Assembly (NCBI GenBank): GCA_043778225.1
Contig: JAYWGM010000050.1
Coordinates: 1 to 24,440, forward strand
From: Deinococcales bacterium
GTDB lineage: Bacteria > Deinococcota > Deinococci > Deinococcales > JAAFIG01
DNA: 24,440 nt
Direction of reading: 5' to 3'
The notes under the pieces were generated by a model, which was not told where the DNA came from, ran no database searches, and saw only the letters and a list, made by a program, of their open reading frames with translations. The number at the start of each line of letters is the position of its first letter. The first letter of the stretch is position 1. Of this stretch, positions 8,087 through 24,290 are shown piece by piece. A program made the translations under genes and the position numbers.

Positions 8087-8174
8087 AAGGTCTAAAGGCA
8101 AGGTGAAAAGGTTAAAGGGTTAAAAGGTTAAAAGAGAAAAACTTTTCACCTTTTTTACTTTTTCCCTTTTAACC

Positions 8175-8660
8175 CTAGTCATTCGCCATCGGCAGGGGCA
8201 TTCCGCTTTGGGTGGCGGGGTTAGCGAGTAATCTGGCTTTGGTGGCAGCATCGGCAAACTGTGCCTCGAGCAGTAAATCCTTGAGAGTGGCATTGCCCAA
8301 GACATCGCGGATAGCAGAGTCCACCCGCCGCCAGAGGCTTTCTGTACCGCACGAAGACACATGGGTGCAACTGCTCGAGTCCTCGATACACGAAACTGGA
8401 GCGATGCTGCCTTCCATCACCTCGACGACCTCGAGTGCCGAAATAAGTTCGGGCGCACGGGCGAGTTTATAACCGCCAAATGCCCCACGGACACTGCGGA
8501 TAAAGCCAGCCCGTCGCAAGTTAGAAGCAATTTGCTCGAGGTAATGCTGCGAAATACTCTGGCGTTCTGCCACATATTTAAGCGCCACCGATTCGCCGTT
8601 GGCGTTAGCGATTTCGACAAGGGCGCGAAGTCCGTACTGAGCTTTGGTTGAAATCCACAT
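8175..8660 (-). CDS. Rrf2 family transcriptional regulator (IscR/CymR-like)
   Basis: STKAQYGLRAL, YLEQI, SVRGAFGGYKLAR and three Cys (C-x6-C-x5-C). Directly upstream of iscS. Confidence 0.92.
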   Translation of the reverse strand: MWISTKAQYGLRALVEIANANGESVALKYVAERQSISQHYLEQIASNLRRAGFIRSVRGAFGGYKLARAPELISALEVVEVMEGSIAPVSCIEDSSSCTHVSSCGTESLWRRVDSAIRDVLGNATLKDLLLEAQFADAATKARLLANPATQSGMPLPMAND

Positions 8661-8744: not shown

Positions 8745-10721
8745 CTAATCGAGTGTCAGTTCCTCGGCTCGGGTCAAATGGGCTTGGCTGTCCTCGAGCG
8801 CCATAAGCCTTGAGGCTTCGGCGGCAGCTTGCAGGCTGTACTCTCGGGCTGCTTGGATTTGATTTGCACCCAGCGCATGCAGTACCAAAATGGCGGCTGG
8901 CGCACCAATAACCTCGAGCGCCCGCAGGGCTTGCAGATGCAGTGTACTTTGCAACATTTCCGAAGTCCCTTCGAGAATTGCCTCGAGAATCAAGTCGTGG
9001 GTAAAACGTGTCCCCACCATAATTTTAGCTTTCTCGAGAATTTCGATGTTGCTGGCTACTCGTTGCCAAGTCCATTCTAGTGCTACTTGGGCTAAACGGC
9101 TGCTAAACTGCTCTCCTGTGATGGCTGCAAAACGAGCCAAAAGCAAAGCCTGATTTGGTAATTTTTCTAGGCGTAATTGGGTTATTTCGTAAGCTCGAGG
9201 AATGCTTGAAAGTTGTATTTGCCGAATCTGTAGACCCCTTTCTAATAAAGCATGAGCGGTTTCGAGAACCAAAAGTGGATTGCCGCCCGTAAAACGCATA
9301 ACTTGGCTCATTAAAGGCTCAAGTCGTGGGTCAATACTTTTAAGGTATTGCTGAACGGCTTTTCTTGGCAATGGCTGTATATCAATCCATTCAGCCAAAC
9401 CAAGCTGTACCCAATCGCGTAAACTTGCTTCGATTTCGGGTTTTAAGCTATCGTTACGAAAAATAAAAACCGAACGTGGAAAACCCGGTTTATACGGCAA
9501 GAATTTAGAATGTAAATAGATGCCGGCTTTAGAAGAAGAAGGGTCAACAAATTGTACATCATCAAATAACAAGGTTGCCCACTTGCTCTCGAGCGAAGCC
9601 AAGCAATACATTTGGGCTTGGGCTTCAAAAAAACGCAAGCGGTCTTGTTCGTTATTAATGGGTGCAGGAGCAACCCCGTAAGCTGGTACAATTCGTGCCA
9701 TTTCTGAGCGCACCCAATCTGGAAGCTGTAAATCAGGATGATCCAAACGCATTTGTTCATAACAACGAGCGTGCGTGGTGTAAGGTACAAAAGAATCACC
9801 CGGTCTGCCCCAAACGTGCCAAAAAGTGCCTTTGCTACGCACAAAATCAAGTGCTAATCGGCTTTTGCCGATACCCGATTCACCCGAAATCAGAATGGTT
9901 TTACCAGCTTGCCAAGCGGCTTCCATCCGTGCCCATTCTTGCTCACGACCCAACAAAGGCAAAGCTGTCACGGGTACAACAGGTTTAGAACCCTTAAAAA
10001 CTTCAAGATTCAACAAGGCTAAACACCCTGAAGTATCACCAGATAAGGCTAACTCGAGGGCGGCTTGGGTTATTTCGACAGGCGAAACCCCATAAGCCTC
10101 GTGTAAAACTGCCATAAACGTATCAGCAGCTTTTTTACAAAGCGCACTTTCGCCTAAAGCCCCCAAAGTCAGCAACCACCAACGAGCAGCTTCTTCGCTT
10201 GGTTCAAAGCGGTCTGTCGCCGCCGCCTCGAGCCACGGCAAGGCTTGGCGCAATGCCCCGCGCTCCAAAGTTTGTCGAGCCAGTTCAAATGCCAAACGGC
10301 AACGCTCTGAAGCAAAACGCCGACGCTGGCTCTCGAGCCACTCCTCGAATTCGCCACCTAAGCCCATATGCCAATCGCGGAAACGCAAACCTTGCAAAAA
10401 CTCTTTTTCGCACAGATGAAAACGTTTGAGCGGGTCTTGACTGGACTCGAGAATATCGGATTGCACCTTGCCAAGCGCCAACGAAGAACTGTCTGCGCTA
10501 AAAATACCCGAGCCAAGCGCTGCCACAATTTCGCCACGCACCACCGAAAGGTTATTCAGGGCATCGTGAGTACCAGACCAAAACAGGGCGGCTAATTGCC
10601 GCCGCGAAGTCCGACCCTCGAGCGCTAAGTATGCAAGTAGGGCAAAGGCTTTATTGGAGAGTTTGGCAGGGTCAGACTCGAGCAACGCCCGTGGAAAACC
10701 AAAAAAATGAAGATGAATCAA
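8745..10721 (-). CDS. SARP/BTAD transcriptional regulator with STAND-type AAA ATPase
   Basis: N-terminal wHTH (KAFALLAYLALEG..SRRQLAALFW), BTAD (EFEEWLESQR, EEAARWWL), Walker A GESGIGKS, Walker B LLFDDVQ, TGGNPL and FTHDL. The likely start is TTG 10721, preceded by GGAGGG. Confidence 0.88.
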   Translation of the reverse strand: MIHLHFFGFPRALLESDPAKLSNKAFALLAYLALEGRTSRRQLAALFWSGTHDALNNLSVVRGEIVAALGSGIFSADSSSLALGKVQSDILESSQDPLKRFHLCEKEFLQGLRFRDWHMGLGGEFEEWLESQRRRFASERCRLAFELARQTLERGALRQALPWLEAAATDRFEPSEEAARWWLLTLGALGESALCKKAADTFMAVLHEAYGVSPVEITQAALELALSGDTSGCLALLNLEVFKGSKPVVPVTALPLLGREQEWARMEAAWQAGKTILISGESGIGKSRLALDFVRSKGTFWHVWGRPGDSFVPYTTHARCYEQMRLDHPDLQLPDWVRSEMARIVPAYGVAPAPINNEQDRLRFFEAQAQMYCLASLESKWATLLFDDVQFVDPSSSKAGIYLHSKFLPYKPGFPRSVFIFRNDSLKPEIEASLRDWVQLGLAEWIDIQPLPRKAVQQYLKSIDPRLEPLMSQVMRFTGGNPLLVLETAHALLERGLQIRQIQLSSIPRAYEITQLRLEKLPNQALLLARFAAITGEQFSSRLAQVALEWTWQRVASNIEILEKAKIMVGTRFTHDLILEAILEGTSEMLQSTLHLQALRALEVIGAPAAILVLHALGANQIQAAREYSLQAAAEASRLMALEDSQAHLTRAEELTLD

Positions 10722-10994
10722 GAAAACCCTCCGAATTAGATAAAAAATACCAGTGCCAATGCAATTTTTCAGTTGGGATAGATGCAAAGCATTCAAGCGG
10801 GATGACGAAAAACAAACACCAAAAAGTCCTACAAGACCATCTCAACAATCTTTACTCAGACAGCCATTGATAAGACTATCAGAAAATCAGGTTTATCCAA
10901 AGAAAGTCAGCAAAAAAGCTGTCAAGAATTCATTGATATACTTTTCTACACTCAAAAAATCGCACATCAGAAAAAGCTCATTTAGACTTTAGAT

Positions 10995-11025
10995 TAACTC
11001 AGACCTAACTCAGAGTGGATCTGAG
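10995..11025. promoter_or_regulatory. Candidate operator: TAACTCAGA direct repeat (11-bp period) plus an inverted CTCAGA/TCTGAG pair
   Basis: TAACTCAGA at 10995 and 11006; TCTGAG at 11020. Located between the divergent regulator and the peptide-lipoprotein unit. Confidence 0.45.
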
Positions 11026-11398
11026 CATCGCACCATAGACAAAAAACATGATGGACGGTACAAAATCAAGACTCCGCTAAGTCAGACTTTTTTAAGGGTA
11101 GAAACGTCAAAATTGTATTCTTAGGAATTCTTTATAAACCTAAGTTGTTAAGCAGTATCGCAGTTGCTTTGTAGGAAAAATAAAGCCTCATCAGATTTTT
11201 CAGACTAAGGGAATAAGCCATTGAAATAGCAGTATGAAAAACTTCACACTAAGTCTGAATGAGTCCGACACTCGAGAATAGGAATAAGGAGGTACACAAT
11301 TTTGCGGAAATAAGCAAACCAGAAAAAAAGCGCGAATTGGTGAGATAGCGATAAATCAAAAGCACAAAGAAACCTAAGCAGAAGTGAAAGGAAAGCAA

Positions 11399-11539
11399 AT
11401 GAAAAACAAAGCAATTTATGAAGCACCAAAACTCGAGGAACATGGAAAGTACACTGTGATAACTGGCGGTAGCGAAGAGATATTCAGTCCAGATTTTTTT
11501 GAAGTGTCTAATCTTCCAACTTTCGAGGATCTAAAATAG
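11399..11539 (+). CDS. 46-aa lasso-peptide-precursor-like small protein (below the ORF track cutoff)
   Basis: MKNKAIYEAPKLEEHGKYTVITG-GSEEIFSPDFFEVSNLPTFEDLK. AAGGA RBS 6 nt upstream, YxxPxL-xxx-G-xxxxx-T leader motif, predicted core Gly1 with Asp9. Confidence 0.78.
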   Translation: MKNKAIYEAPKLEEHGKYTVITGGSEEIFSPDFFEVSNLPTFEDLK

Positions 11540-11588
11540 AAACTCAAGTCTTTAGTTTCTAGGCACTCGTGAATAATTGAGGTCAAAT

Positions 11589-14500
11589 ATGAAAATCAAT
11601 AAAAGTCAAGTCGTCGGAGTCATAGGGGCTTTGGTGCTTGCGAGTTGCACAAGCCAAAATCTTGTACAGCCACCAAATGTTGAATCTGAACGCAGAGTCG
11701 TTGGAATTGTCAATGTTGAGTTTCTGATGTCAGAAAATAACAATTTAGTCATGGCAAATGCCAAATTTCAACCCAATTCAAAACTCTCAACCCAAACATC
11801 TCCATTGACAGATAATTCGATCACGTTGGAAAGAGTATTCGGAACACGAGTAGACTACTTTCCAACACGCCAACGCTTTGTTGCTTCAACATTAAGACTT
11901 ACGAATAATACAAATTTGGCGTTCAAAAACTTAACAATTTATGGTATCAATCGGGTAAGTAGTATCAATGGTACTGCTTTTACGAACCTGCTAAGGGAAA
12001 ATAGTACACCAATTGCAGACCCAGCAGGCACCGCAATACGAATTAAACCAAACCATGGTATGCAAATCAATGCGACAACCCTGTCACTTGCAGTAGACCC
12101 TAACAAAGCCGATTTACAGGTTATTACTCCTGCGGAAGCCGATGCTATTGAATTATTGCCTGCAATGCTAGGTCCGACAGGACTTATTGCAACCAAACAG
12201 ATTCAGCAAGTTCTCGAGTATGGATTTGTGGCACGCAACTTCGCAACTTCAGGAAATAAGCGTACAATAGCCGCTAGTGGTGGAACAGGACAGGTAAGTA
12301 TCGCCCTAAATTTACCACTTGAAACAGATTCTTTTGAAAGCCCTGCCCGTTTGTTTTGGTCATTTCTAGTTGTGGATGAACCTGTTACTCGTGTGACCCG
12401 CAGTGTCGAAGAAGGAAACGACATTCTAAATGTTGCCAATCGTGCCGATGATACTGGTGTTATTGCGCCAGATGTTCGTGAAGTCTTGATGATGGGACGC
12501 GATGTTGCCAATATTCCAACCACAACGACTTCAACAGGTGGTCAAGAGTACAAAATTGCTCCATTATCCCCAGCACTCAATTTGGTTCAAGTGCCTTACA
12601 ATCAAGTTCGTGTTGGTACAGTAGCCCCAACATTTATCAGCGACTTTGGCGAAATCTTTGTCCAAGCCAATGCTTCTCCGGGTGGTAATGGGTCTTCGGG
12701 TTTACCATTCAAAACCATTCAAGAAGGCGTAGATGTTGCTGTATTAGGCGCTAACGATATTGTTCGTGTTCGCAGTGGTACATATCCTGGCAATGTTAAT
12801 GTCAATAAAGATGTACGCATTTTCGGACCTGCGTCAGGTACAGATGGTCGTGATGTTACCCGTTGCGTAACTGGTGTTGGACCAAGCTGCGCCAGCGATG
12901 CTGTAATAAAAGGTGCAGTAACCATCTCTTCAAGTGCGGCAGCTACATTCTCGGGTTTCCGTTTCTTGGATAATAGTCCTCAGGGTGTTGCACCAGATGT
13001 TTTCTTACTCGATATTACAACTGTGCAGAACCACTTGATTGAAAATAACGTTTTCTACCGTGATGGTGTTGTTGCAGAAACCTCTCCAAATAGTGGTGTG
13101 TACGCTTTTGTGGGTGGAGGCAATACAAATAAGCAAGTTGGTGCAATTCGCACGGCTGTCGAAAATTCACCTTCAACCAACAAAATTGTTATTCAAAAGA
13201 ATCGCATTAGTGGTAATCCTGTTAATGCCTCTGGTATCTATGCTAATAAGAGTTGGGGTGCTTCCCGTGCGCCAGCAGTTAGTATCGGTGGTGGCACAAG
13301 TGGAAAACTTGACTTCAAAGACAATGATATTGATTCTGCTCGAGGTGCTTTGTACATTGATAAACCGAATGCAGACCATGTAGTCACTGGCAATACCTTC
13401 AAAGACAATGGCACAGCCTTTGGTCTGACGAATGTCACTCTTTCCAGTTTCTCAATTACTGGTAATACATTTAGTACAACAAGTGACGCAATACCACCAT
13501 TGCCAGCCAACCGTTTACTGGACCGTAAAGAAGTCACTTACTTTAACTTGCGTAACGCCGTACCAAATACGTTCACTTTAACGGCTTCCAATAACACCTA
13601 CGATGGTAAATTGCCATCTGCCATGACCAAGCCAGAATTGTTTGATCTCGAGGATCAGACCGATCACCGCATTGATGCTGCTGCTTGGGGCTTGGTGCGT
13701 TTTAAGCCAACTGAGTTGTACGTCACGATTTTCTCTTGTGCAGCCGATCCTTTGTGTAACGCCGGTGATGCCAATCCACAACGTGCCATTGATGCAGCTA
13801 CCGCAGGTGATACAGTCAACATCGAAGCTGGAACATATACCAATCAACTAAGCATCGCCAAGAATCTGAACATTGTTGGTGATGGTGCGACCACAATTAT
13901 TCAAGCTCCAGCAGGGGCAGCTTTGGTTGTGAATGGTGGTACAAACAACAATGCCAACTTAATTGATATGACTGCGGGTACGGTCAGCATGACGATGCTT
14001 AAAATTAAAGGACCGCATACTAAATCTGGTAGTCCTTGTAACAGCACCATGAAATTGAATCGTGGCATTTCTATCTCGGGTGGGGCATTAACCATGACCG
14101 ATTCGTTTATAGATTCAATTCGTGATACAGCTATATTTAATTGCGCCAATCAGGGTGTTGGTATTTATGTGGGTTCGGGTAGCCTGAATATCTCTGGTTC
14201 AGAAATTACCAATTTCCAATCTGGTGGTATTCTTGTGACTGGTGCAAGCAGCAGTGCAATCATCGATGATAATTTGATCCAAGGCAACACAGCCAACCCT
14301 GTGACTTCCAGAGGAATCGAAGTTGCCAGTGGTGGCGTGGCAACCATCACCAATAACGGTATCAAAGATGTACAATGCCCAACTTGTGTCGCCAACGAAG
14401 ATGTTGGAATTGGTATTTTGGTTCGTACCACTGGTCTTGTTACGATTACAGGTAATAACACCATCGAAAATAACGAATTGGGTATTAACGCTCGTGGTGC

Positions 14501-14963
14501 AGGGCTGAACTTGGTCATTAATACCAATACATTCACGGGTAATCTGGATGCTGGTGTGCGCTTCTTTGCCAATGAAGGTCTTTCTACACCTGCTTCGGGT
14601 AATGTTACTTTTAACACCAATACTCTGGTTGGTCCAGTCGTTCCTGGTGCATCGGTTTGCTTTGATGCAGAAACTAACTTGCTTGCCTCTGCCAGCTTGA
14701 CTGTAACAGGGACTGGTAATAAGCTCAGCAAGTGCAATTATGCAATTGAACTCAATGATTCTGCTATTATCGCCAATAAAATCAATCTGAGTTTGCAAAG
14801 CGGTAACATTGATGGTGTGACCCGTGATATGTTCAACACTGGTTCGCCTGCACCTAGTCTTCTTGACAACTGGTGGGTAACAACTGTTGGTCCATTCCCA
14901 CTCAATCTTCCAAGCATTGTAGGCGCGGCAAACACTGCACCAGTGGCAGTTGCTCCTTACTAA
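11589..14963 (+). CDS. Large surface lipoprotein with two right-handed beta-helix (pectin-lyase-fold/DUF1565-like) modules
   Basis: ATG 11589 with GAGGT RBS; lipobox LVLASC (Cys20). Beta-helix caps PFKTIQEGVD..VRVRSGTY and PQRAIDAATAGDTVNIEAGTY are followed by Asn/Gly/Ile-rich repeats (ITGNTF, IDDNLI, ITNNGI). Confidence 0.85.
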   Translation: MKINKSQVVGVIGALVLASCTSQNLVQPPNVESERRVVGIVNVEFLMSENNNLVMANAKFQPNSKLSTQTSPLTDNSITLERVFGTRVDYFPTRQRFVASTLRLTNNTNLAFKNLTIYGINRVSSINGTAFTNLLRENSTPIADPAGTAIRIKPNHGMQINATTLSLAVDPNKADLQVITPAEADAIELLPAMLGPTGLIATKQIQQVLEYGFVARNFATSGNKRTIAASGGTGQVSIALNLPLETDSFESPARLFWSFLVVDEPVTRVTRSVEEGNDILNVANRADDTGVIAPDVREVLMMGRDVANIPTTTTSTGGQEYKIAPLSPALNLVQVPYNQVRVGTVAPTFISDFGEIFVQANASPGGNGSSGLPFKTIQEGVDVAVLGANDIVRVRSGTYPGNVNVNKDVRIFGPASGTDGRDVTRCVTGVGPSCASDAVIKGAVTISSSAAATFSGFRFLDNSPQGVAPDVFLLDITTVQNHLIENNVFYRDGVVAETSPNSGVYAFVGGGNTNKQVGAIRTAVENSPSTNKIVIQKNRISGNPVNASGIYANKSWGASRAPAVSIGGGTSGKLDFKDNDIDSARGALYIDKPNADHVVTGNTFKDNGTAFGLTNVTLSSFSITGNTFSTTSDAIPPLPANRLLDRKEVTYFNLRNAVPNTFTLTASNNTYDGKLPSAMTKPELFDLEDQTDHRIDAAAWGLVRFKPTELYVTIFSCAADPLCNAGDANPQRAIDAATAGDTVNIEAGTYTNQLSIAKNLNIVGDGATTIIQAPAGAALVVNGGTNNNANLIDMTAGTVSMTMLKIKGPHTKSGSPCNSTMKLNRGISISGGALTMTDSFIDSIRDTAIFNCANQGVGIYVGSGSLNISGSEITNFQSGGILVTGASSSAIIDDNLIQGNTANPVTSRGIEVASGGVATITNNGIKDVQCPTCVANEDVGIGILVRTTGLVTITGNNTIENNELGINARGAGLNLVINTNTFTGNLDAGVRFFANEGLSTPASGNVTFNTNTLVGPVVPGASVCFDAETNLLASASLTVTGTGNKLSKCNYAIELNDSAIIANKINLSLQSGNIDGVTRDMFNTGSPAPSLLDNWWVTTVGPFPLNLPSIVGAANTAPVAVAPY

Positions 14964-14975
14964 ACAATCTCAAGT

Positions 14976-15009
14976 AAAAGAACCCCTCTTCGTGAGGGGT
15001 TTTTCTTTT
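14976..15009. terminator. Bidirectional intrinsic terminator
   Basis: AAAAG-AACCCCTC-TTCGT-GAGGGGTT-TTTCTTTT between convergent genes. Confidence 0.88.
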
Positions 15010-15021
15010 GTCCTATTGAAA

Positions 15022-15816
15022 TTAACGTTTTAAGAATCTCTTGGCTCGAGCCAAAAGCCTTTGCCAAATACTGCTTTTATGAGTTGCACGAATCCCGTGC
15101 ATTGTAATTTCATAACCCATTTTCTCGTAGAAGCGAATGTTCTCTGGATGTACCCCTAGAAAAACATGGGTATTACCAACGGCGGCAGCATCCGAATGTA
15201 TTCTTTGCATAATGGCAGTTGCTAAACCCTGCTTTCGGGCTTTGAGTTGCGTATTTACATCGCTGACCCAACTCGAGCCATCCGCGCCCTGAGAATTCCT
15301 TGCCCATGACAGCATTTTTTTATTCTCGAGAATGGCGTACAAATAACTGCCCATTTTCTGAGTTGGTAACTCAAAAAACTGAGAATTTGAGGCTACTGCT
15401 GCTTGGGCATCAAAATGCTTTCTTAAAATGCTGTGGCTGGTGCTTTGGTTCAAGTCCGAGTGAAGCGTTTTTCGCATTAAGAAAAACTTCTTAAAAGCGA
15501 CCGAACGATTTCTCGAGTAAACCAAACTCATTTGTTCTATGGCTATTTCGGATTGGCAGAAATGATACGCTGTGAAATGACTTATTTGTTCAGTTTGAAT
15601 AAATTCTAATATTGCTTTGGGATTTTGTTCAGCACTGATAATAAAAATCTCTTGCTCGCCTTGGTTTTTAATGTGCCAAATACCTGCCTTATAATGAAGT
15701 TGTGCGGCTTTGTATAAACCGCGCATGACCAGCAAATGAGCAACTACAGATTCAAGTTCGCTAGGTTTAGCGTCTGGTAGGGCAGAGTCTGGCATAATCG
15801 TAATCATACACAGCAT
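15022..15816 (-). CDS. GNAT family N-acetyltransferase
   Basis: C-terminal VSDVNT...ARKQGLATAIM (motif A) and NIRFYEKMGY. The exact start is uncertain. Confidence 0.8.
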   Translation of the reverse strand: MLCMITIMPDSALPDAKPSELESVVAHLLVMRGLYKAAQLHYKAGIWHIKNQGEQEIFIISAEQNPKAILEFIQTEQISHFTAYHFCQSEIAIEQMSLVYSRNRSVAFKKFFLMRKTLHSDLNQSTSHSILRKHFDAQAAVASNSQFFELPTQKMGSYLYAILENKKMLSWARNSQGADGSSWVSDVNTQLKARKQGLATAIMQRIHSDAAAVGNTHVFLGVHPENIRFYEKMGYEITMHGIRATHKSSIWQRLLARAKRFLKR

Positions 15817-16995: not shown

Positions 16996-17117
16996 AAAGA
17001 CCTCAGTAGTTTAACACGAATCATACCGAATTAACTTACTCACTCTCATTTGACCTAAAAAGCGGTCAAACTGTCGTTCATGCGTAAATTCGGTATTTTT
17101 GGTACTCCTTTTAGTCG

Positions 17118-17148
17118 GTCAAGCAGTCAAAATACACGACTGCTTGAC
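17118..17148 (-). terminator. Stem-loop downstream of the crotonase gene (possible terminator)
   Basis: GTCAAGCAGTC-n9-GACTGCTTGAC perfect 11-bp inverted repeat, without a clear U tract. Confidence 0.45.
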
Positions 17149-17159
17149 ACAATTTGGTG

Positions 17160-17951
17160 TCATTCGCCGCTAAATTCGGGCTTGCGTTTCTCGAGAAATG
17201 CGGCTACCCCCTCTTTCATGTCTTGGCTGCTGCTGATTAAACCAAATAAGTCGGCTTCGAGTTCCAAACCATCGTTGAGTGTACCGGTCAAACCACGCCG
17301 CACCGCTTCTTTGGCAAGCCCAATGGCGACGGGTGCATTTTTGATGATGCTGCGTGCCAAGGCTTCGGCTTCGGCTAGGGCATTGTCCGCCACACGATTG
17401 ACCAAGCCCATACTCAGGGCTTCTTCGGCTGGCACATGGCGAGCAGTTAAAATTAAATCCAAGGCTCGAGCCTCGCCAATTAAACGCGGCAAGCGTTGTG
17501 TGCCACCGTAACCGGGTATTAAGCCCAGTCCAACTTCGGGCAGTCCAAGTTTGGCATTTTTACTGGCAACCCGCAGGTCGCACGCCAAGGCAAGCTCGAG
17601 TCCACCACCCAGCGCAAAGCCGTTGATGGCGGCAATCGTGGGAATTGGCATGGCAGAAATACTCGACATCGCATCCTGACCACCAAGTGCCATTTCGCGT
17701 CCTTCAAAGGCGGTTTCTAAACCCTGAAATTCGCTAATGTCCGCCCCAGCCACAAAGGATTTTTCGCCAGCCCCAGTGATAATCAGGGCTTGGGTTTCGG
17801 GTGGCTCGAGACACGCCTCAAGGGCTGCCCCGAGTTCTTGGAGCGTTTCGGAATTGAGGGCATTAAGGGCTTTGGGGCGGTTCATGGTGATGATTGCAAT
17901 TGCGCCATCTTCGCTAAACTCGAGGGTTAAGTTCTTAAAATCGGTTTCCAT
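17160..17951 (-). CDS. Enoyl-CoA hydratase/isomerase (crotonase family)
   Basis: NRPKALNAL, FVAGADI, AINGFALGGGLELALACD, PEVGLGLIPGYGGTQRL, AFLEKRKP. Confidence 0.95.
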   Translation of the reverse strand: METDFKNLTLEFSEDGAIAIITMNRPKALNALNSETLQELGAALEACLEPPETQALIITGAGEKSFVAGADISEFQGLETAFEGREMALGGQDAMSSISAMPIPTIAAINGFALGGGLELALACDLRVASKNAKLGLPEVGLGLIPGYGGTQRLPRLIGEARALDLILTARHVPAEEALSMGLVNRVADNALAEAEALARSIIKNAPVAIGLAKEAVRRGLTGTLNDGLELEADLFGLISSSQDMKEGVAAFLEKRKPEFSGE

Positions 17952-21991: not shown

Positions 21992-22476
21992 GGCAGCACC
22001 AAATCTGCGCCAAGACCTTCTGGCAGTGGATACCCAAGTAAACGTCCTAGCAACAGCAATTGCCCTTGATGATGAAATTCGTGGGTCATCGGACGCACAA
22101 TCAACCAGCGTTTTGTGACCATAAATTGGTCGCGCCCAGGTCGCACCACCTCAAAGGGCGCGTCTACATCATCAAAAGTTGCAAATGCCTGCTCGAGAAT
22201 TGTGTCCACCTCGAGGAATTTAGCTCGCATGGCGGCTGGCGTGTTGATGGCTTTCATCTCGAGTTCTTGTTCAAAAGCGGGTAATCCAAGTCCGTAACGC
22301 CCAACCCACCATAGATAAGCGTAGGCAATATGGGCGTGAAGATCGCGGATACTGCCGTAAGGTACGTCTTGATGCTGCTGCAAGTACACTTCGGGCGGAA
22401 GACTTTCGGTGTATCTCTGTACGTCTTCTCGAGTGCGTTTAACCCAGTTGTATATCAGTGGCAAAGAAGTGTCCAT
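21988..22476 (-). CDS. DinB/YfiT family protein
   Basis: GSIRDLHAHIA and THEFHHQGQL provide the three-His metal site. TAATG coupling to the ABC gene. Confidence 0.88.
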   Translation of the reverse strand: MDTSLPLIYNWVKRTREDVQRYTESLPPEVYLQQHQDVPYGSIRDLHAHIAYAYLWWVGRYGLGLPAFEQELEMKAINTPAAMRAKFLEVDTILEQAFATFDDVDAPFEVVRPGRDQFMVTKRWLIVRPMTHEFHHQGQLLLLGRLLGYPLPEGLGADLVLP

Positions 22477-24239
22477 TAAGCCATCACCAGCTTTTTGCGC
22501 TCACCGATTTGTTGTCGCCACATCGCGTAGTACAAGCCCTTCTCGAGCAGCAGGGCTTCGTGCGAACCAGTTTCGACAATTTCGCCGCGCTCGAGAACAT
22601 AAATTCGGTCAGCGTGCATGATCGTACTTAACCTGTGGGCTATTAAAACCGTGATTTGCTGTCCCGAACTCGAGATTTCGCGGATGGTGTTGGTGATGTC
22701 TTCTTCGGTTAAAGAATCGAGCGCACTGGTGGCTTCATCAAAAATCAGGATATTTGGCTGGCGCAACAAGGCTCGAGCGATCGAAATGCGCTGTTTTTCG
22801 CCGCCAGACAGCTTTAAGCCACCTTCGCCGATGGTTGTGTCCATACCTTTTTCGGCTTTTGCCAACAGCCCATTGCACGAGGCTCGAGACAGGGTTTGGC
22901 GCAGCAATTCATCCGAGGCATTTGGCGCAACAAACAGCAGATTTTCTTTGATTGTGCCGCTAAATAGCTGGGTGTCTTGAGTCACAAAACCAATCTGAGC
23001 GCGGAGTTCTTCAAAGTTAATGCTTGTTTCCGAGACTCCATTATAAAAAACGCTGCCCGTATCTGGACGGTATAAGCCAACCAAGAGTTTCATCAGGGTG
23101 CTTTTACCAGAACCACTCGGTCCAACAAATGCAATCGTTTCGCCTCGAGTGACCTTAAAATCAATTTTTTCAATCGCATTGTGAGTCGCGCTTTGGTGCT
23201 TAAAACTGACGCTCGAAAAATGTAAATCCTGGACTGCACCAAGATTTTTTGGCTCGAGTGGCTGGGCTTCGGGGGCTTTTTGCATCAGTTTCTCAAAATT
23301 ATTTAAGGAGGCTTCGGCTTCGCGGTACGAAAGCAACACATTGCCAATTTCTTGCATTGGACCAAAGACAAAAAAAGCAAAAAACTGCATTGTAATCAGT
23401 TGTTCAGCCGAAATGGTCTTGCCGAAAATTAAAAACATCAAAATAAATAAAATCACTTGGCGCAGTGTGTTGACCATCGTGCCTTGGACAAAACCAATGC
23501 CTCGAACGTTTTTGACTTTCTCGAGTTCAAGTCCAAGGATTTTCTGGGTGTTTTTGTTGAGGCGCGTAATTTCTTGCCCTGTTAAACCAAGGCTTTTGAC
23601 CAATTCGATGTTGCGTAGGCTTTCGGTGGTTGAACCCGCTAAAGCTGTGGTTTTGGCAACAATCGTTTTTTGAATAATTTTTAAGCGCTGACTGAGTGCA
23701 TTGGTGGCAAAAACCATCAAGACAGCCCCGAGCGCGTAGGCTATCGGTAAGCTCCAATGGACAAAAAGTGCGGCGTAGACAAACACAAAAATAACCGCAA
23801 TAATCACACCAAACAGCACATTGATCGCATAATTTAAGAATTTTTCAACATCGGCACGCACCTTGGTCAGAATAGATAAAGTTTCGCCACTGCGCTGGTC
23901 TTCAAAATCTTGATAGGGCAGTTTCATGGCGTGCTGCAAACCATCGCTAAAAACCTGAGCGCCAAATTTTTGCACAATCACATTCAAATAGTAATCCTGA
24001 AAATTTTTGGCAATGCGGCTGACCATCGCCACCCCAACACTGGCAGCCAGTAAAGTCAGCACGGTCGGCAAAAAATCGTTCCAATCGAGCGGCTTGGTTT
24101 CTTGACTAAACGCCAGTTTAACCAGTTGCCCCGTAATAATCGGGTCGAGCAAAGAAAAACCCGTGTTGATGGCAGCCAAGATAAGGGTGATGATCACCAA
24201 GTTGCGATGCGGTTTTAAGTATAAGAGTAGTATTTTCAT
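22476..24239 (-). CDS. ABC exporter, fused TMD-NBD half transporter
   Basis: N-terminal TM helices, GPSGSGKS, VTQD, LSGGEKQR, IFDEATSALD, IAHRLST. Start set at ATG 24239. Confidence 0.94.
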   Translation of the reverse strand: MKILLLYLKPHRNLVIITLILAAINTGFSLLDPIITGQLVKLAFSQETKPLDWNDFLPTVLTLLAASVGVAMVSRIAKNFQDYYLNVIVQKFGAQVFSDGLQHAMKLPYQDFEDQRSGETLSILTKVRADVEKFLNYAINVLFGVIIAVIFVFVYAALFVHWSLPIAYALGAVLMVFATNALSQRLKIIQKTIVAKTTALAGSTTESLRNIELVKSLGLTGQEITRLNKNTQKILGLELEKVKNVRGIGFVQGTMVNTLRQVILFILMFLIFGKTISAEQLITMQFFAFFVFGPMQEIGNVLLSYREAEASLNNFEKLMQKAPEAQPLEPKNLGAVQDLHFSSVSFKHQSATHNAIEKIDFKVTRGETIAFVGPSGSGKSTLMKLLVGLYRPDTGSVFYNGVSETSINFEELRAQIGFVTQDTQLFSGTIKENLLFVAPNASDELLRQTLSRASCNGLLAKAEKGMDTTIGEGGLKLSGGEKQRISIARALLRQPNILIFDEATSALDSLTEEDITNTIREISSSGQQITVLIAHRLSTIMHADRIYVLERGEIVETGSHEALLLEKGLYYAMWRQQIGERKKLVMA

Positions 24240-24261
24240 TTTTATCCTAATATGGAGCAGC

Positions 24262-24290
24262 AAAAAAGCAGGCAACCCTTGCCTGCTTTT
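24262..24290 (-). terminator. Intrinsic terminator upstream of the ABC gene
   Basis: AAAAAAGCAGGCAA-CCC-TTGCCTGCTTTT hairpin with T tracts on both strands. Confidence 0.8.

Follow-up and report, generated by a model that had tools for sequence, protein, structure and literature searches.

A YxxPxL leader peptide paired with surface lipoproteins in Deinococcota, a probable precursor of LPP-like linear phosphopeptides

What does a gene for a very short peptide with a lasso-type leader do directly before the gene of a giant surface lipoprotein, and does the divergent regulator gene nearby belong to the same system? In the window, by which we mean the whole 24,440-nt stretch of DNA analyzed here, these three genes (Table 1) had been read in a preliminary description as one co-regulated module. 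We find that the peptide family is common in Deinococcus and its relatives and stands nearly always with one unnamed family of surface proteins, the regulator being an occasional companion. The best overall explanation, which we regard as probable, is that the peptide is the precursor of a linear phosphopeptide resembling the linear polyphosphorylated peptides (LPP) of Bacillota (lppA-K-B-S-D-N; Popov et al., 2026, PMC13381572, cited throughout from parts of the paper), processed in trans and coupled to surface lipoproteins.

Table 1. Features of the window and of the modifying kit encoded on other contigs of the source genome (C64, C44).
Feature	Coordinates	Strand	Basis or remark
SARP-STAND-type regulator (wHTH, BTAD-like region, AAA_16 ATPase), without C-terminal sensor region	8745..10721	-	optional companion
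Perfect 9-nt direct repeat TAACTCAGA, 11-bp spacing	10995..11014	+	candidate operator, picked after the fact
Peptide ORF, 46 aa	11399-11539	+	ORF call and NCBIfam match
Precursor leader, Y7-x-x-P10-x-L12 ... T22-G23	11399..11467	+	register with TfuA lasso leader and LPP leaders (Y-16, T-1; PMC13381572)
Predicted core, 23 aa	11468..11539	+	modification inferred from LPP
A/T-rich 8-bp hairpin over peptide stop, without U-tract	11537..11561	+	z -2.3 over a 71-nt stretch
Lipoprotein signal peptide and lipobox LASC (Cys20)	11589..11648	+	sequence
Unnamed conserved N-terminal beta-sandwich domain (N-domain), ~260 aa	11688..12467	+	common to 22 paralogues, no Pfam family
Variable passenger, right-handed beta-helix region	12639..14963	+	Pfam PF13229 at residues 858-1017
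Intrinsic-terminator-like hairpin with U-tract	14978..15004	+	terminator scan
RRE and kinase	C64:7670-8811		kit in source genome, other contig
NTase-B2 (nucleotidyltransferase-B2) fusion	C44:65469-66782		kit in source genome, other contig

The compact peptide-lipoprotein unit of the preliminary description stands: all three genes are real, 49 nt separate the peptide stop from the lipoprotein ATG (11589), a terminator scan between the two genes found none, and a terminator-like hairpin follows downstream. The lasso likeness of the peptide lies in its YxxPxL ... T-x leader, which the NCBIfam lasso-leader model NF033521 scores at 20.5 bits (cut-off 19). The window peptide is the sole match of this model in the source genome and the only family peptide among the five matches of a strict lasso-leader pattern; a profile was required for the rest. 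Its Ser25 (11471-11473), at Thr+3, is the family’s conserved serine and, by analogy with LPP, the predicted phospho-acceptor. The window copy is also atypical in ways that count against the best explanation, namely the 49-nt gap, the lack of x-P-I-G after the serine and a core with both Gly1 and Asp9; the failure of its promoter in the 11-bp repeat test described below counts against it too.

The source genome contains 15 precursors of the YxxPxL...T-x-x-S type, 14 of them upstream of a lipoprotein gene; in relatives 51 of 59 peptides are paired with a lipoprotein, and a profile search of two congeners gave 25 peptides in all, 23 of which immediately precede a gene with the N-domain and two of which immediately follow one. 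At one homologous pair (L126), RNA reads start 16 nt before the peptide and run on through the lipoprotein as one continuous transcript. The pairing of peptide and surface protein that had been proposed from the window is thus a repeated and conserved arrangement. Judged by codon changes (33 synonymous and 21 non-synonymous, in seven hand-picked close pairs from loci other than the window), the peptide family is protein-coding. Its leader keeps a strict register, with the threonine 15 residues after the tyrosine in 52 of 60 peptides, and a comparison of the family profile with the TfuA leader gives an E-value of 0.036. The conserved serine is in place in 47 of 51 T-L peptides (Thr+4) and in 23 of 25 T-G peptides (Thr+3), while the cores are hypervariable, some just 3-8 residues long. 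An ‘LE’ that is invariant in the source genome was left out of the motif because, although it is always coded CTCGAG there, the same codons serve 69% of the LE dipeptides that long ORFs contain, and because its glutamate is kept in just 32 of 60 peptides in other genera.

The peptide overlaps the lipoprotein start codon by 1-8 nt in 12 of 15 cases in the source genome, and a stop-start overlap is found for 42 of the 59 relatives’ peptides, the choice of start being mechanical in this count. Such overlaps would suit a cis-acting upstream ORF at which RRE- or kinase-gated translation controls re-initiation at the lipoprotein start, the product itself being unimportant; the acidic C-terminal residues that partly overlie the downstream ribosome-binding site, and the shortest cores, point the same way. 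At several loci, however, the peptide follows the N-domain gene or diverges from it (C60, L149, L152, L155, L172, L177, L196, L236, L239), the window pair is separated by its gap, and the serine and a complete catalytic kit are conserved, so that we consider control in cis quite unlikely.

The protein partner in the window is a lipoprotein of 1124 aa with a Pfam beta-helix region, one of 22 paralogues in the source genome that have the same N-domain and variable passengers. The N-domain is a large unannotated domain, with 937 clusters at 50% identity. Compared with solved structures, among them pilin, S-layer and adhesin-anchor folds, it gave nothing at E<=0.001 in Foldseek, the top VIA result had Z 6.5 (rmsd 3.4, 118 residues aligned), and its leads in Atlas are all below 0.9; the absence of a clear match does not amount to a new fold. 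For the passenger, a search of its sequence against the PDB found nothing and a single-sequence fold prediction was unusable (pLDDT 38). The coupling is not universal: N-domain lipoproteins stand without a peptide in genomes that have no B2 peptidase (see below) and at several loci of genomes that have one (5 of 20 loci selected by the N-domain, one of them cut by a contig end), which weighs against the best explanation.

The divergent regulator had been described as a SARP-STAND protein with BTAD. Its ORF (8745-10796, minus strand) probably starts at a TTG at 10721 behind GGAGG, giving 658 aa, and is indeed divergent; Pfam finds only AAA_16 (PF13191) above cut-off and no BTAD, but paralogues that do have BTAD can be aligned with the protein along its whole length (30% over residues 29-644), a homology by which it is classed as SARP-STAND-type. 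It stops ~490 residues before the end of an 1147-aa paralogue and is missing the C-terminal repeat sensor region, which weakens the earlier suggestion that the peptide is a ligand for this regulator. More than 30 SARP-STAND genes occur in the source genome, where one lies within 2.5 kb of 7 of the 22 N-domain lipoproteins against a background of 4.4% (p 3e-5). Elsewhere such neighbors are rare, with a SARP-STAND gene beside 3 of 59 peptides in relatives (by a profile search that missed at least one more) and, in other genera, an adjacent SARP gene at 2 of 20 N-domain loci and 0 of 20 NTase-B2 loci. A quick tree was built from 31 regulators with at least 600 aa, leaving out the cut C17 copy and shorter ones; the seven that adjoin lipoprotein or peptide genes are scattered on it (seven changes for seven rows), which speaks against a dedicated regulator subfamily. 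The neighborhood comparison across Deinococcota that had been proposed thus gives a divided answer, in that the upstream peptide recurs with the lipoprotein and the regulator rarely co-occurs, and the notion of a fixed three-part module is not supported. A fixed, dedicated cassette in which an unmodified peptide serves as chaperone or ligand would fit the divergent regulator-peptide-lipoprotein layout at four source-genome loci (C50, C17, C28, C92) and at three loci of one congener (L161, L162, L169), but most operons have no regulator and the peptide tracks the modifying kit rather than the regulator; largely refuted as a conserved unit, this reading is highly improbable.

SARP-type control of peptide-lipoprotein operons in the genus is nevertheless plausible. 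Of 24 congener peptides, 11 have SARP-type repeats of 11 bp upstream compared to 3.7 in shuffles, neighboring periods (8-14 bp) give no comparable signal there, and 7 of 15 peptides in the source genome pass the 11-bp heptamer-repeat test; SARP-STAND activators, recruited case by case, probably switch on many of these operons. An N-terminal SARP region with an ATPase, and heptamer repeats before many of the genus’s peptide operons, recall SARP-LAL/AfsR-type regulators as described in parts of PMC5930380, from which the Deinococcota case differs in that the targets are surface-protein operons, the window copy has no C-terminal sensor and the window promoter fails the repeat test. The enrichment of the many SARP-STAND genes beside N-domain genes and the repeats would also fit a peptide that is processed in the same way and whose product is an intracellular or diffusible signal of surface-protein expression, read by SARP-STAND sensors; a cytoplasmic ligand needs no exporter, and hypervariable cores would suit one. 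Yet kit and peptides are kept in genera where an adjacent SARP gene is rare, and the adjacent regulators are scattered on the tree and include the sensorless window copy. We judge such signaling rather unlikely.

The 602-bp intergenic region contains six TYAGAC sites, the direct repeat of Table 1 included, compared to 0.74 in shuffles, for a motif picked post hoc that shows no enrichment over the whole window (14 versus 14.1); sigma-70 promoter matches in a scan of the window are below chance. As for the claim that the module sits between housekeeping genes, iscR is confirmed (Rrf2 by Pfam), but the immediate right-hand neighbor is a GNAT gene (15022-15816), behind which stands the gene that had been called NYN. 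Because genes other than those of the window precede iscR in both congeners tested, we regard the housekeeping flanks as incidental.

By analogy with known systems, we infer that the leader is a docking signal for a modifying kit acting in trans, overlooked in the preliminary description and consisting of an RRE, an HprK-like kinase and an NTase-B2 peptidase. The peptidase is B2 by NF033537 and PF13471, both above cut-off, and is fused to the nucleotidyltransferase; PF05402 and PF14907 also score above cut-off in the kit, and the kinase is recognized by weak HprK-related NCBIfam matches in an orthologue. All 21 sequences compared keep the B2 Cys/His/Glu and the NTase GDxD without change, and all 13 kinases keep the Gly-Lys-Thr of Walker A. 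Across 201 Deinococcota genomes, 47 have both the lasso-type B2 peptidase and the N-domain, 12 and 13 have one alone and 129 have neither, and within one genus the counts for N-domain and B2 are 34/6/5/38, statistics that are overstated because the genomes are kin. At N-domain loci in 10 of 12 B2-less genomes no peptide was found. B2 occurs mostly as the NTase-B2 fusion beside the RRE and HprK-like kinase, without a cyclase. Since another set of 20 B2 loci was partly hand-picked for visible linkage, we draw linkage counts from the peptide-selected and NTase-B2-pattern sets: 20 NTase-B2-pattern stretches, some of which duplicate earlier ones, include 11 with an N-domain gene, 9 with a peptide and none with a cyclase-like or SARP gene. 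No other gene family recurs in at least 5 of 22 kit loci. Two complete kit loci (L202, L204) have no peptide or N-domain gene nearby, which counts against the best explanation. An MsbA-like gene is present in 6 of 50 kit stretches, three of those a different split kit, and the lack of a conserved exporter that would take the peptide to the surface counts against the best explanation.

These counts also bear on whether the window peptide is a true lasso precursor whose Gly1-Asp9 ring is made by the lasso cluster at C92:39625-46219. The peptide’s unique NF033521 match in the genome, the presence of a cyclase-like gene there and the window peptide’s place as one of only 2 among the 76 T-G or T-L peptides whose core combines a small first residue with Asp/Glu at 7-9 would favor it. 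That cluster, however, comes with a WxxP precursor of its own behind the cyclase, for which reason we reject the idea of an orphan cluster that might serve the YxxPxL peptides, and Bacillota RREs discriminate W- from Y-type leaders. The ring acid (Asp/Glu at core 7-9) is found in just 7 of the 76, window copy included. The system also differs from lasso systems in that no cyclase C is linked to precursor and B2 in the 20 NTase-B2 stretches, and among the 34 genomes of the same genus that have both markers, one has a cyclase-like gene at E<=1e-40. A lasso product is thus very unlikely.

Building on the established genes, motifs, catalytic residues, co-occurrence and one homologue’s co-transcript, the LPP-like reading would run as follows. 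The RRE would bind the YxxPxL leader, the HprK-like kinase would phosphorylate the serine just past it, the nucleotidyltransferase domain would probably add a nucleotide or sugar onto the serine phosphate, and the fused B2 Cys-peptidase would cut after T-G with no ring formed; binding, phosphorylation and cleavage, drawn from LPP and lasso biochemistry, seem to us likely with good confidence. A single kit per genome would serve many precursors, each co-transcribed and usually translationally coupled with a surface lipoprotein of one family, built of an unnamed N-terminal display domain and a swappable passenger. Our leading guess for the product, a tentative one that we hold at less than even confidence, is that it acts together with the lipoproteins, serving their maturation or envelope display as a partner or a tag. 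A more speculative and doubtful version has the RiPP machinery repurposed, the peptide being a carrier or adaptor and a kit-built phospho-nucleotide or phospho-sugar tag, or the tagged core, being passed to the N-domain, or bound by it, so that the polymorphic lipoproteins are matured, anchored or released.

As judged from sequence, the Deinococcota system resembles LPP but differs in peptidase, phylum, exporter and lipoprotein coupling. LPP leaders have Y-16 and T-1, with phosphorylation at S3 (PMC13381572), and the Deinococcota precursors likewise have a YxxP leader with Y-16/T-1, a serine three residues past the threonine and variable cores, together with a stand-alone RRE, a kinase like HprK, an NTP transferase not yet characterized and no cyclase. 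The LPP peptidase, in contrast, is a signal peptidase I of archaeal type, whereas the conserved one of Deinococcota is a lasso-type B2 fused to a nucleotidyltransferase; the LPP core cluster includes an MsbA-like exporter, whereas no conserved one accompanies the Deinococcota kits. In Deinococcota a genome can have as many as 16 precursors at scattered sites, every one of them next to the gene of a surface lipoprotein. Deletion of the LPP nucleotidyltransferase changed nothing detectable (PMC13381572), a result that counts against the proposed NTase step. LPP are called restricted to Bacillota in the same paper; ‘Deinococc’, ‘lipoprotein’ and ‘surface’ do not occur in the portion of its text consulted, nor do three Deinococcota names in six supplements. 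Phosphorylated or phosphoglycosylated lasso peptides (paeninodin, pseudomycoidin) are made with B1 (RRE), B2, an HPr-kinase homologue and a nucleotidyltransferase, and NTase-B2 fusions are mentioned in the same source (PMC8498205, in part); the Deinococcota kit differs in having no macrolactam cyclase, its cores mostly have no ring acid, and the conserved serine lies close to the core’s N-terminus and not at its C-terminal end. In the literature covered, most subscription papers and bioRxiv supplements aside, we found no account of the Deinococcota system or of a peptide-lipoprotein pairing.

The whole system is present on the D. radiodurans megaplasmid (NC_000958.1), where DR_RS15785-DR_RS15815 include three N-domain lipoproteins, two peptides missing from the (incomplete) gene table examined, an NTase-B2, a kinase-sized gene and PqqD. 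DR_RS15795 is presumably, by an inferred match, the DRB0067 extracellular nuclease. The nuclease, taken to be DRB0067, is stated to be attached to the hexagonal layer and set free after irradiation (PMC3554781, in part), and in the portions of the nuclease literature consulted the locus is known only as a nuclease, with no link to the kit found. Because all of it lies on this megaplasmid, the system is testable: D. radiodurans R1 is tractable, and next to the system lies a nuclease for which a simple plate assay exists, so that knock-outs can probe the system’s role. Overall, the analysis brings out a large domain without annotation and numerous small genes that annotation easily misses, and ties LPP-like chemistry, in another phylum, to a specific unnamed surface-lipoprotein family, a concrete target for a class whose biological role, like that of paeninodin-type peptides, is given as unknown (PMC13381572, discussion). 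The repurposed-RiPP reading, if true, would provide a first biological role for phosphorylated linear and lasso-type peptides and would be one instance of a wider peptide-plus-surface-protein principle.

All three genes of the module proposed in the preliminary description, a SARP-STAND regulator, a leader-bearing peptide and a surface lipoprotein, lie where it placed them; the window makes up one complete contig (C50) in a genome of 4.03 Mb. The regulator, which probably starts at 10721, matches Pfam only in its ATPase and ends approximately 490 residues before the end of a 1147-residue paralogue; by homology to its BTAD-bearing paralogues it is SARP-STAND-type. An 8-bp hairpin without a U-tract spans the peptide stop codon, and a terminator-like hairpin lies 3' of the lipoprotein gene. 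The flanks are incidental, since other genes precede iscR in both congeners examined. An MsbA-like ABC exporter 7.5 kb away shows no sign of belonging to the module, and two short intergenic stretches of the window recur in many copies in both congeners.

Features of the window and of related loci (G000, source genome; C44 and C92, its contigs; L216, a locus from another genome)
Feature	Location	Description
Peptide gene	window 11399-11539	46 aa; above NCBIfam lasso-leader cut-off
Lipoprotein gene	window 11589-14963	lipobox and beta-helix region
MsbA-like ABC exporter	window 22476-24275	
Intergenic repeat	window ~17020-17160	REP- or MITE-like
Intergenic repeat	window ~8090-8180	REP- or MITE-like
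Lasso cluster (L035)	G000:C92:39625-46219	B2-RRE-cyclase-precursor (WxxP type)
guaB-like gene	G000:C92:36938-39628	896 aa
NTase-B2 gene	C44:65469-66782	nucleotidyltransferase-B2 peptidase fusion
YxxP peptides with RRE-B2 pair	L216:9468-14810	three near-identical peptides

The peptide–lipoprotein pair is a repeated unit. The ~260-residue N-terminal domain of the lipoprotein (N-domain) is common to 22 paralogues in the source genome, the window copy included, and itself matched no Pfam family; 14 of the other 21 carry Pfam-named passengers behind it (FG-GAP, RCC1, LamG, nuclease, P-domain, DUF5122 or Ig-like). A profile search found 15 peptides of the form YxxPxLE...T-G-x-S, of which 14 lie upstream of a lipoprotein gene and the fifteenth behind an N-domain gene. 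Twelve of the 14 overlap the lipoprotein start by 1–8 nt; the remaining two are the window copy, with its 49-nt gap, and the leading member of a tandem pair. One partner lipoprotein, on contig C75, has lost the N-domain. Across 80 stretches from relatives, an N-domain gene directly follows 51 of 59 distinct peptides; when every one of the 25 profile hits in two congeners is counted, a sample free of selection bias, such a gene directly follows 23 peptides and directly precedes 2. The three-part module is thus supported in part. The proposed pairing of peptide and lipoprotein recurs, whereas the regulator is not a regular third member: a SARP-STAND gene lies within 2.5 kb of 7/22 N-domain genes in the source genome (the rate for 989 other long ORFs is 4.4%) and a SARP gene equally close to 3/59 peptides of relatives by profile, with at least one more added by Pfam. 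At 20 loci chosen by N-domain score, a peptide was present at 15 and a SARP at 2.

In a rapidly built tree of 31 regulators, the seven that adjoin a lipoprotein or peptide gene did not group together, needing 7 changes where shuffling gave a mean of 6.5. A heptamer pair with 11-bp spacing and a −10-like hexamer behind it stands upstream of 7/15 peptides in the source genome (against 12.6% of 1387 controls), where a period of 10 scored as well; the signal returns in congeners (11/24 against 3.7 in shuffles), in which other periods of 8–14 bp gave none, and in other genera (8/34 against 2.7). The classical SARP site is an 11-bp repeat (PMC5930380). The window promoter fails this combined test and has a 9-nt repeat with 11-bp spacing ~400 bp upstream. 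That the peptide product signals through SARP-STAND sensors we consider unlikely.

Expression was followed at a homologue, L126 (protein identity 99.7% to NC_000958.1), in two RNA runs of one study. RNA 5' ends fall at position 10590, 16 nt ahead of the peptide start, and depth is unbroken across the peptide and its nuclease lipoprotein; a single transcript is likely, short of proof because the reads are 51 nt long and further ends occur inside the gene. A reading of the peptide gene as a cis-acting upstream ORF is improbable, since some peptides lie downstream of or divergent from their neighbor, which favors action in trans.

The peptide profile and the lasso leader of TfuA align in the same register. 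A Thr follows the Tyr by 15 residues in 52/60 peptides, and the next conserved residue is a Ser in 23/25 peptides of the T-G class and 47/51 of the T-L class; 20 of 96 fall outside both. A ring-forming Asp or Glu occupies core positions 7–9 in only 7/76. The window peptide retains the Tyr, Pro, Leu, Thr and Ser with an atypical core. Seven close peptide pairs differ by 33 synonymous and 21 replacement changes. The last residue is aromatic (F, W or Y) in 31/51 T-L peptides, and a D/E-F-L/M motif occurs in the core of 12/25 T-G peptides. The L216 peptides have a different core, TFFGTFSPPASD, and adjoin an RRE-B2 pair in another family.

The source genome encodes a candidate modifying kit elsewhere: an RRE with a kinase-like gene on contig C64 and, on C44, a fusion of a nucleotidyltransferase with a lasso-type leader peptidase (NTase-B2). 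The closest solved-structure relatives of the RRE are TbiB1 and TfuB1. B2 Cys372/His406/Glu410 and NTase Asp108/Asp110 are invariant (21/21), as is the kinase Walker A Gly-Lys-Thr (13/13). Among 201 genomes of the phylum, 59 have the N-domain, 60 have B2 and 47 have both, and within one genus 34 genomes have both, 6 and 5 one alone and 38 neither, although p-values for this co-occurrence are too strong because kin genomes are non-independent. N-domain loci from 10 of 12 B2-less genomes had no peptide; the peptide therefore tracks the kit, and the lipoproteins can exist without either. In the recurring layout the peptide gene and RRE-kinase diverge, and NTase-B2 is either convergent or adjacent. 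Twenty stretches picked by an NTase-B2 pattern (some repeating earlier stretches, one probably a contaminant contig) contain an N-domain gene in 11, a peptide in 9, and neither a cyclase-like gene nor a SARP in any. At two complete kit loci neither peptide nor N-domain gene was found close by.

On C44 the NTase-B2 gene end abuts an opposite-strand run of nucleotide-sugar (rfb-like) genes, a context not kept in 20 relatives. Three high-GC uncultured genomes (L237, L240, L241) arrange the kit differently, with split B2 and NTase genes, 2–3 HprK-like kinases and an MsbA-like transporter. At L117, L118, L119 and L123 the interval separating N-domain lipoproteins from the NTase-B2 gene repeatedly contains up to three phage tail-collar genes; with them comes a periplasmic binding protein of Tat-like type and, frequently, a GNAT-sized gene. 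One of the L126 peptides has an identical counterpart on a 3.5-kb contig (L233) assigned to Taylorella, which is probably contamination.

As a whole the peptide family is not a lasso system; a cyclase-like gene occurs in 1/34 same-genus genomes with both markers, and the source genome has a separate lasso cluster on C92 with its own WxxP precursor. Also in that cluster are a methyltransferase-like gene fused to an RRE, a glycosyltransferase-like gene and a kinase gene of HprK-like type. W- and Y-type leaders occur side by side in this genome, a situation shared with Bacillota. The guaB-like gene on C92 contains what we take, by eye, to be an intein with a homing endonuclease.

Processing would instead resemble that of the linear polyphosphorylated peptides (LPP) of Bacillota. 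By analogy with LPP (PMC13381572) and pseudomycoidin (PMC8498205), the RRE would bind the leader and the kinase would phosphorylate the core Ser; the nucleotidyltransferase may then modify that phosphate, and B2 would release a linear core, a scheme we regard as probable. Unlike LPP, the system lies outside Bacillota and lacks the signal peptidase I and MsbA exporter features; an MsbA-like exporter occurs in 6/50 kit stretches. The literature searched contained no description of this Deinococcota peptide–kit–lipoprotein system.

The N-domain family comprises 937 clusters at 50% identity, and modelling from 86 sequences gave a confident beta-sandwich (pLDDT 82, pTM 0.83), for which solved structures offered no clear match. 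One member, presumed to be nuclease DRB0067 of D. radiodurans, is bound to the hexagonal layer and set free after irradiation according to PMC3554781; a possible display or anchoring role for the N-domain would fit this binding and release. The absence of an exporter and the existence of peptide-free lipoproteins disfavor the peptide as an obligatory surface partner. Because the peptide is co-synthesized with one lipoprotein family, our best guess, a tentative one that we rank ahead of SARP-STAND signaling and of a cis upstream-ORF role, is that the product may act in the maturation or display of N-domain lipoproteins.
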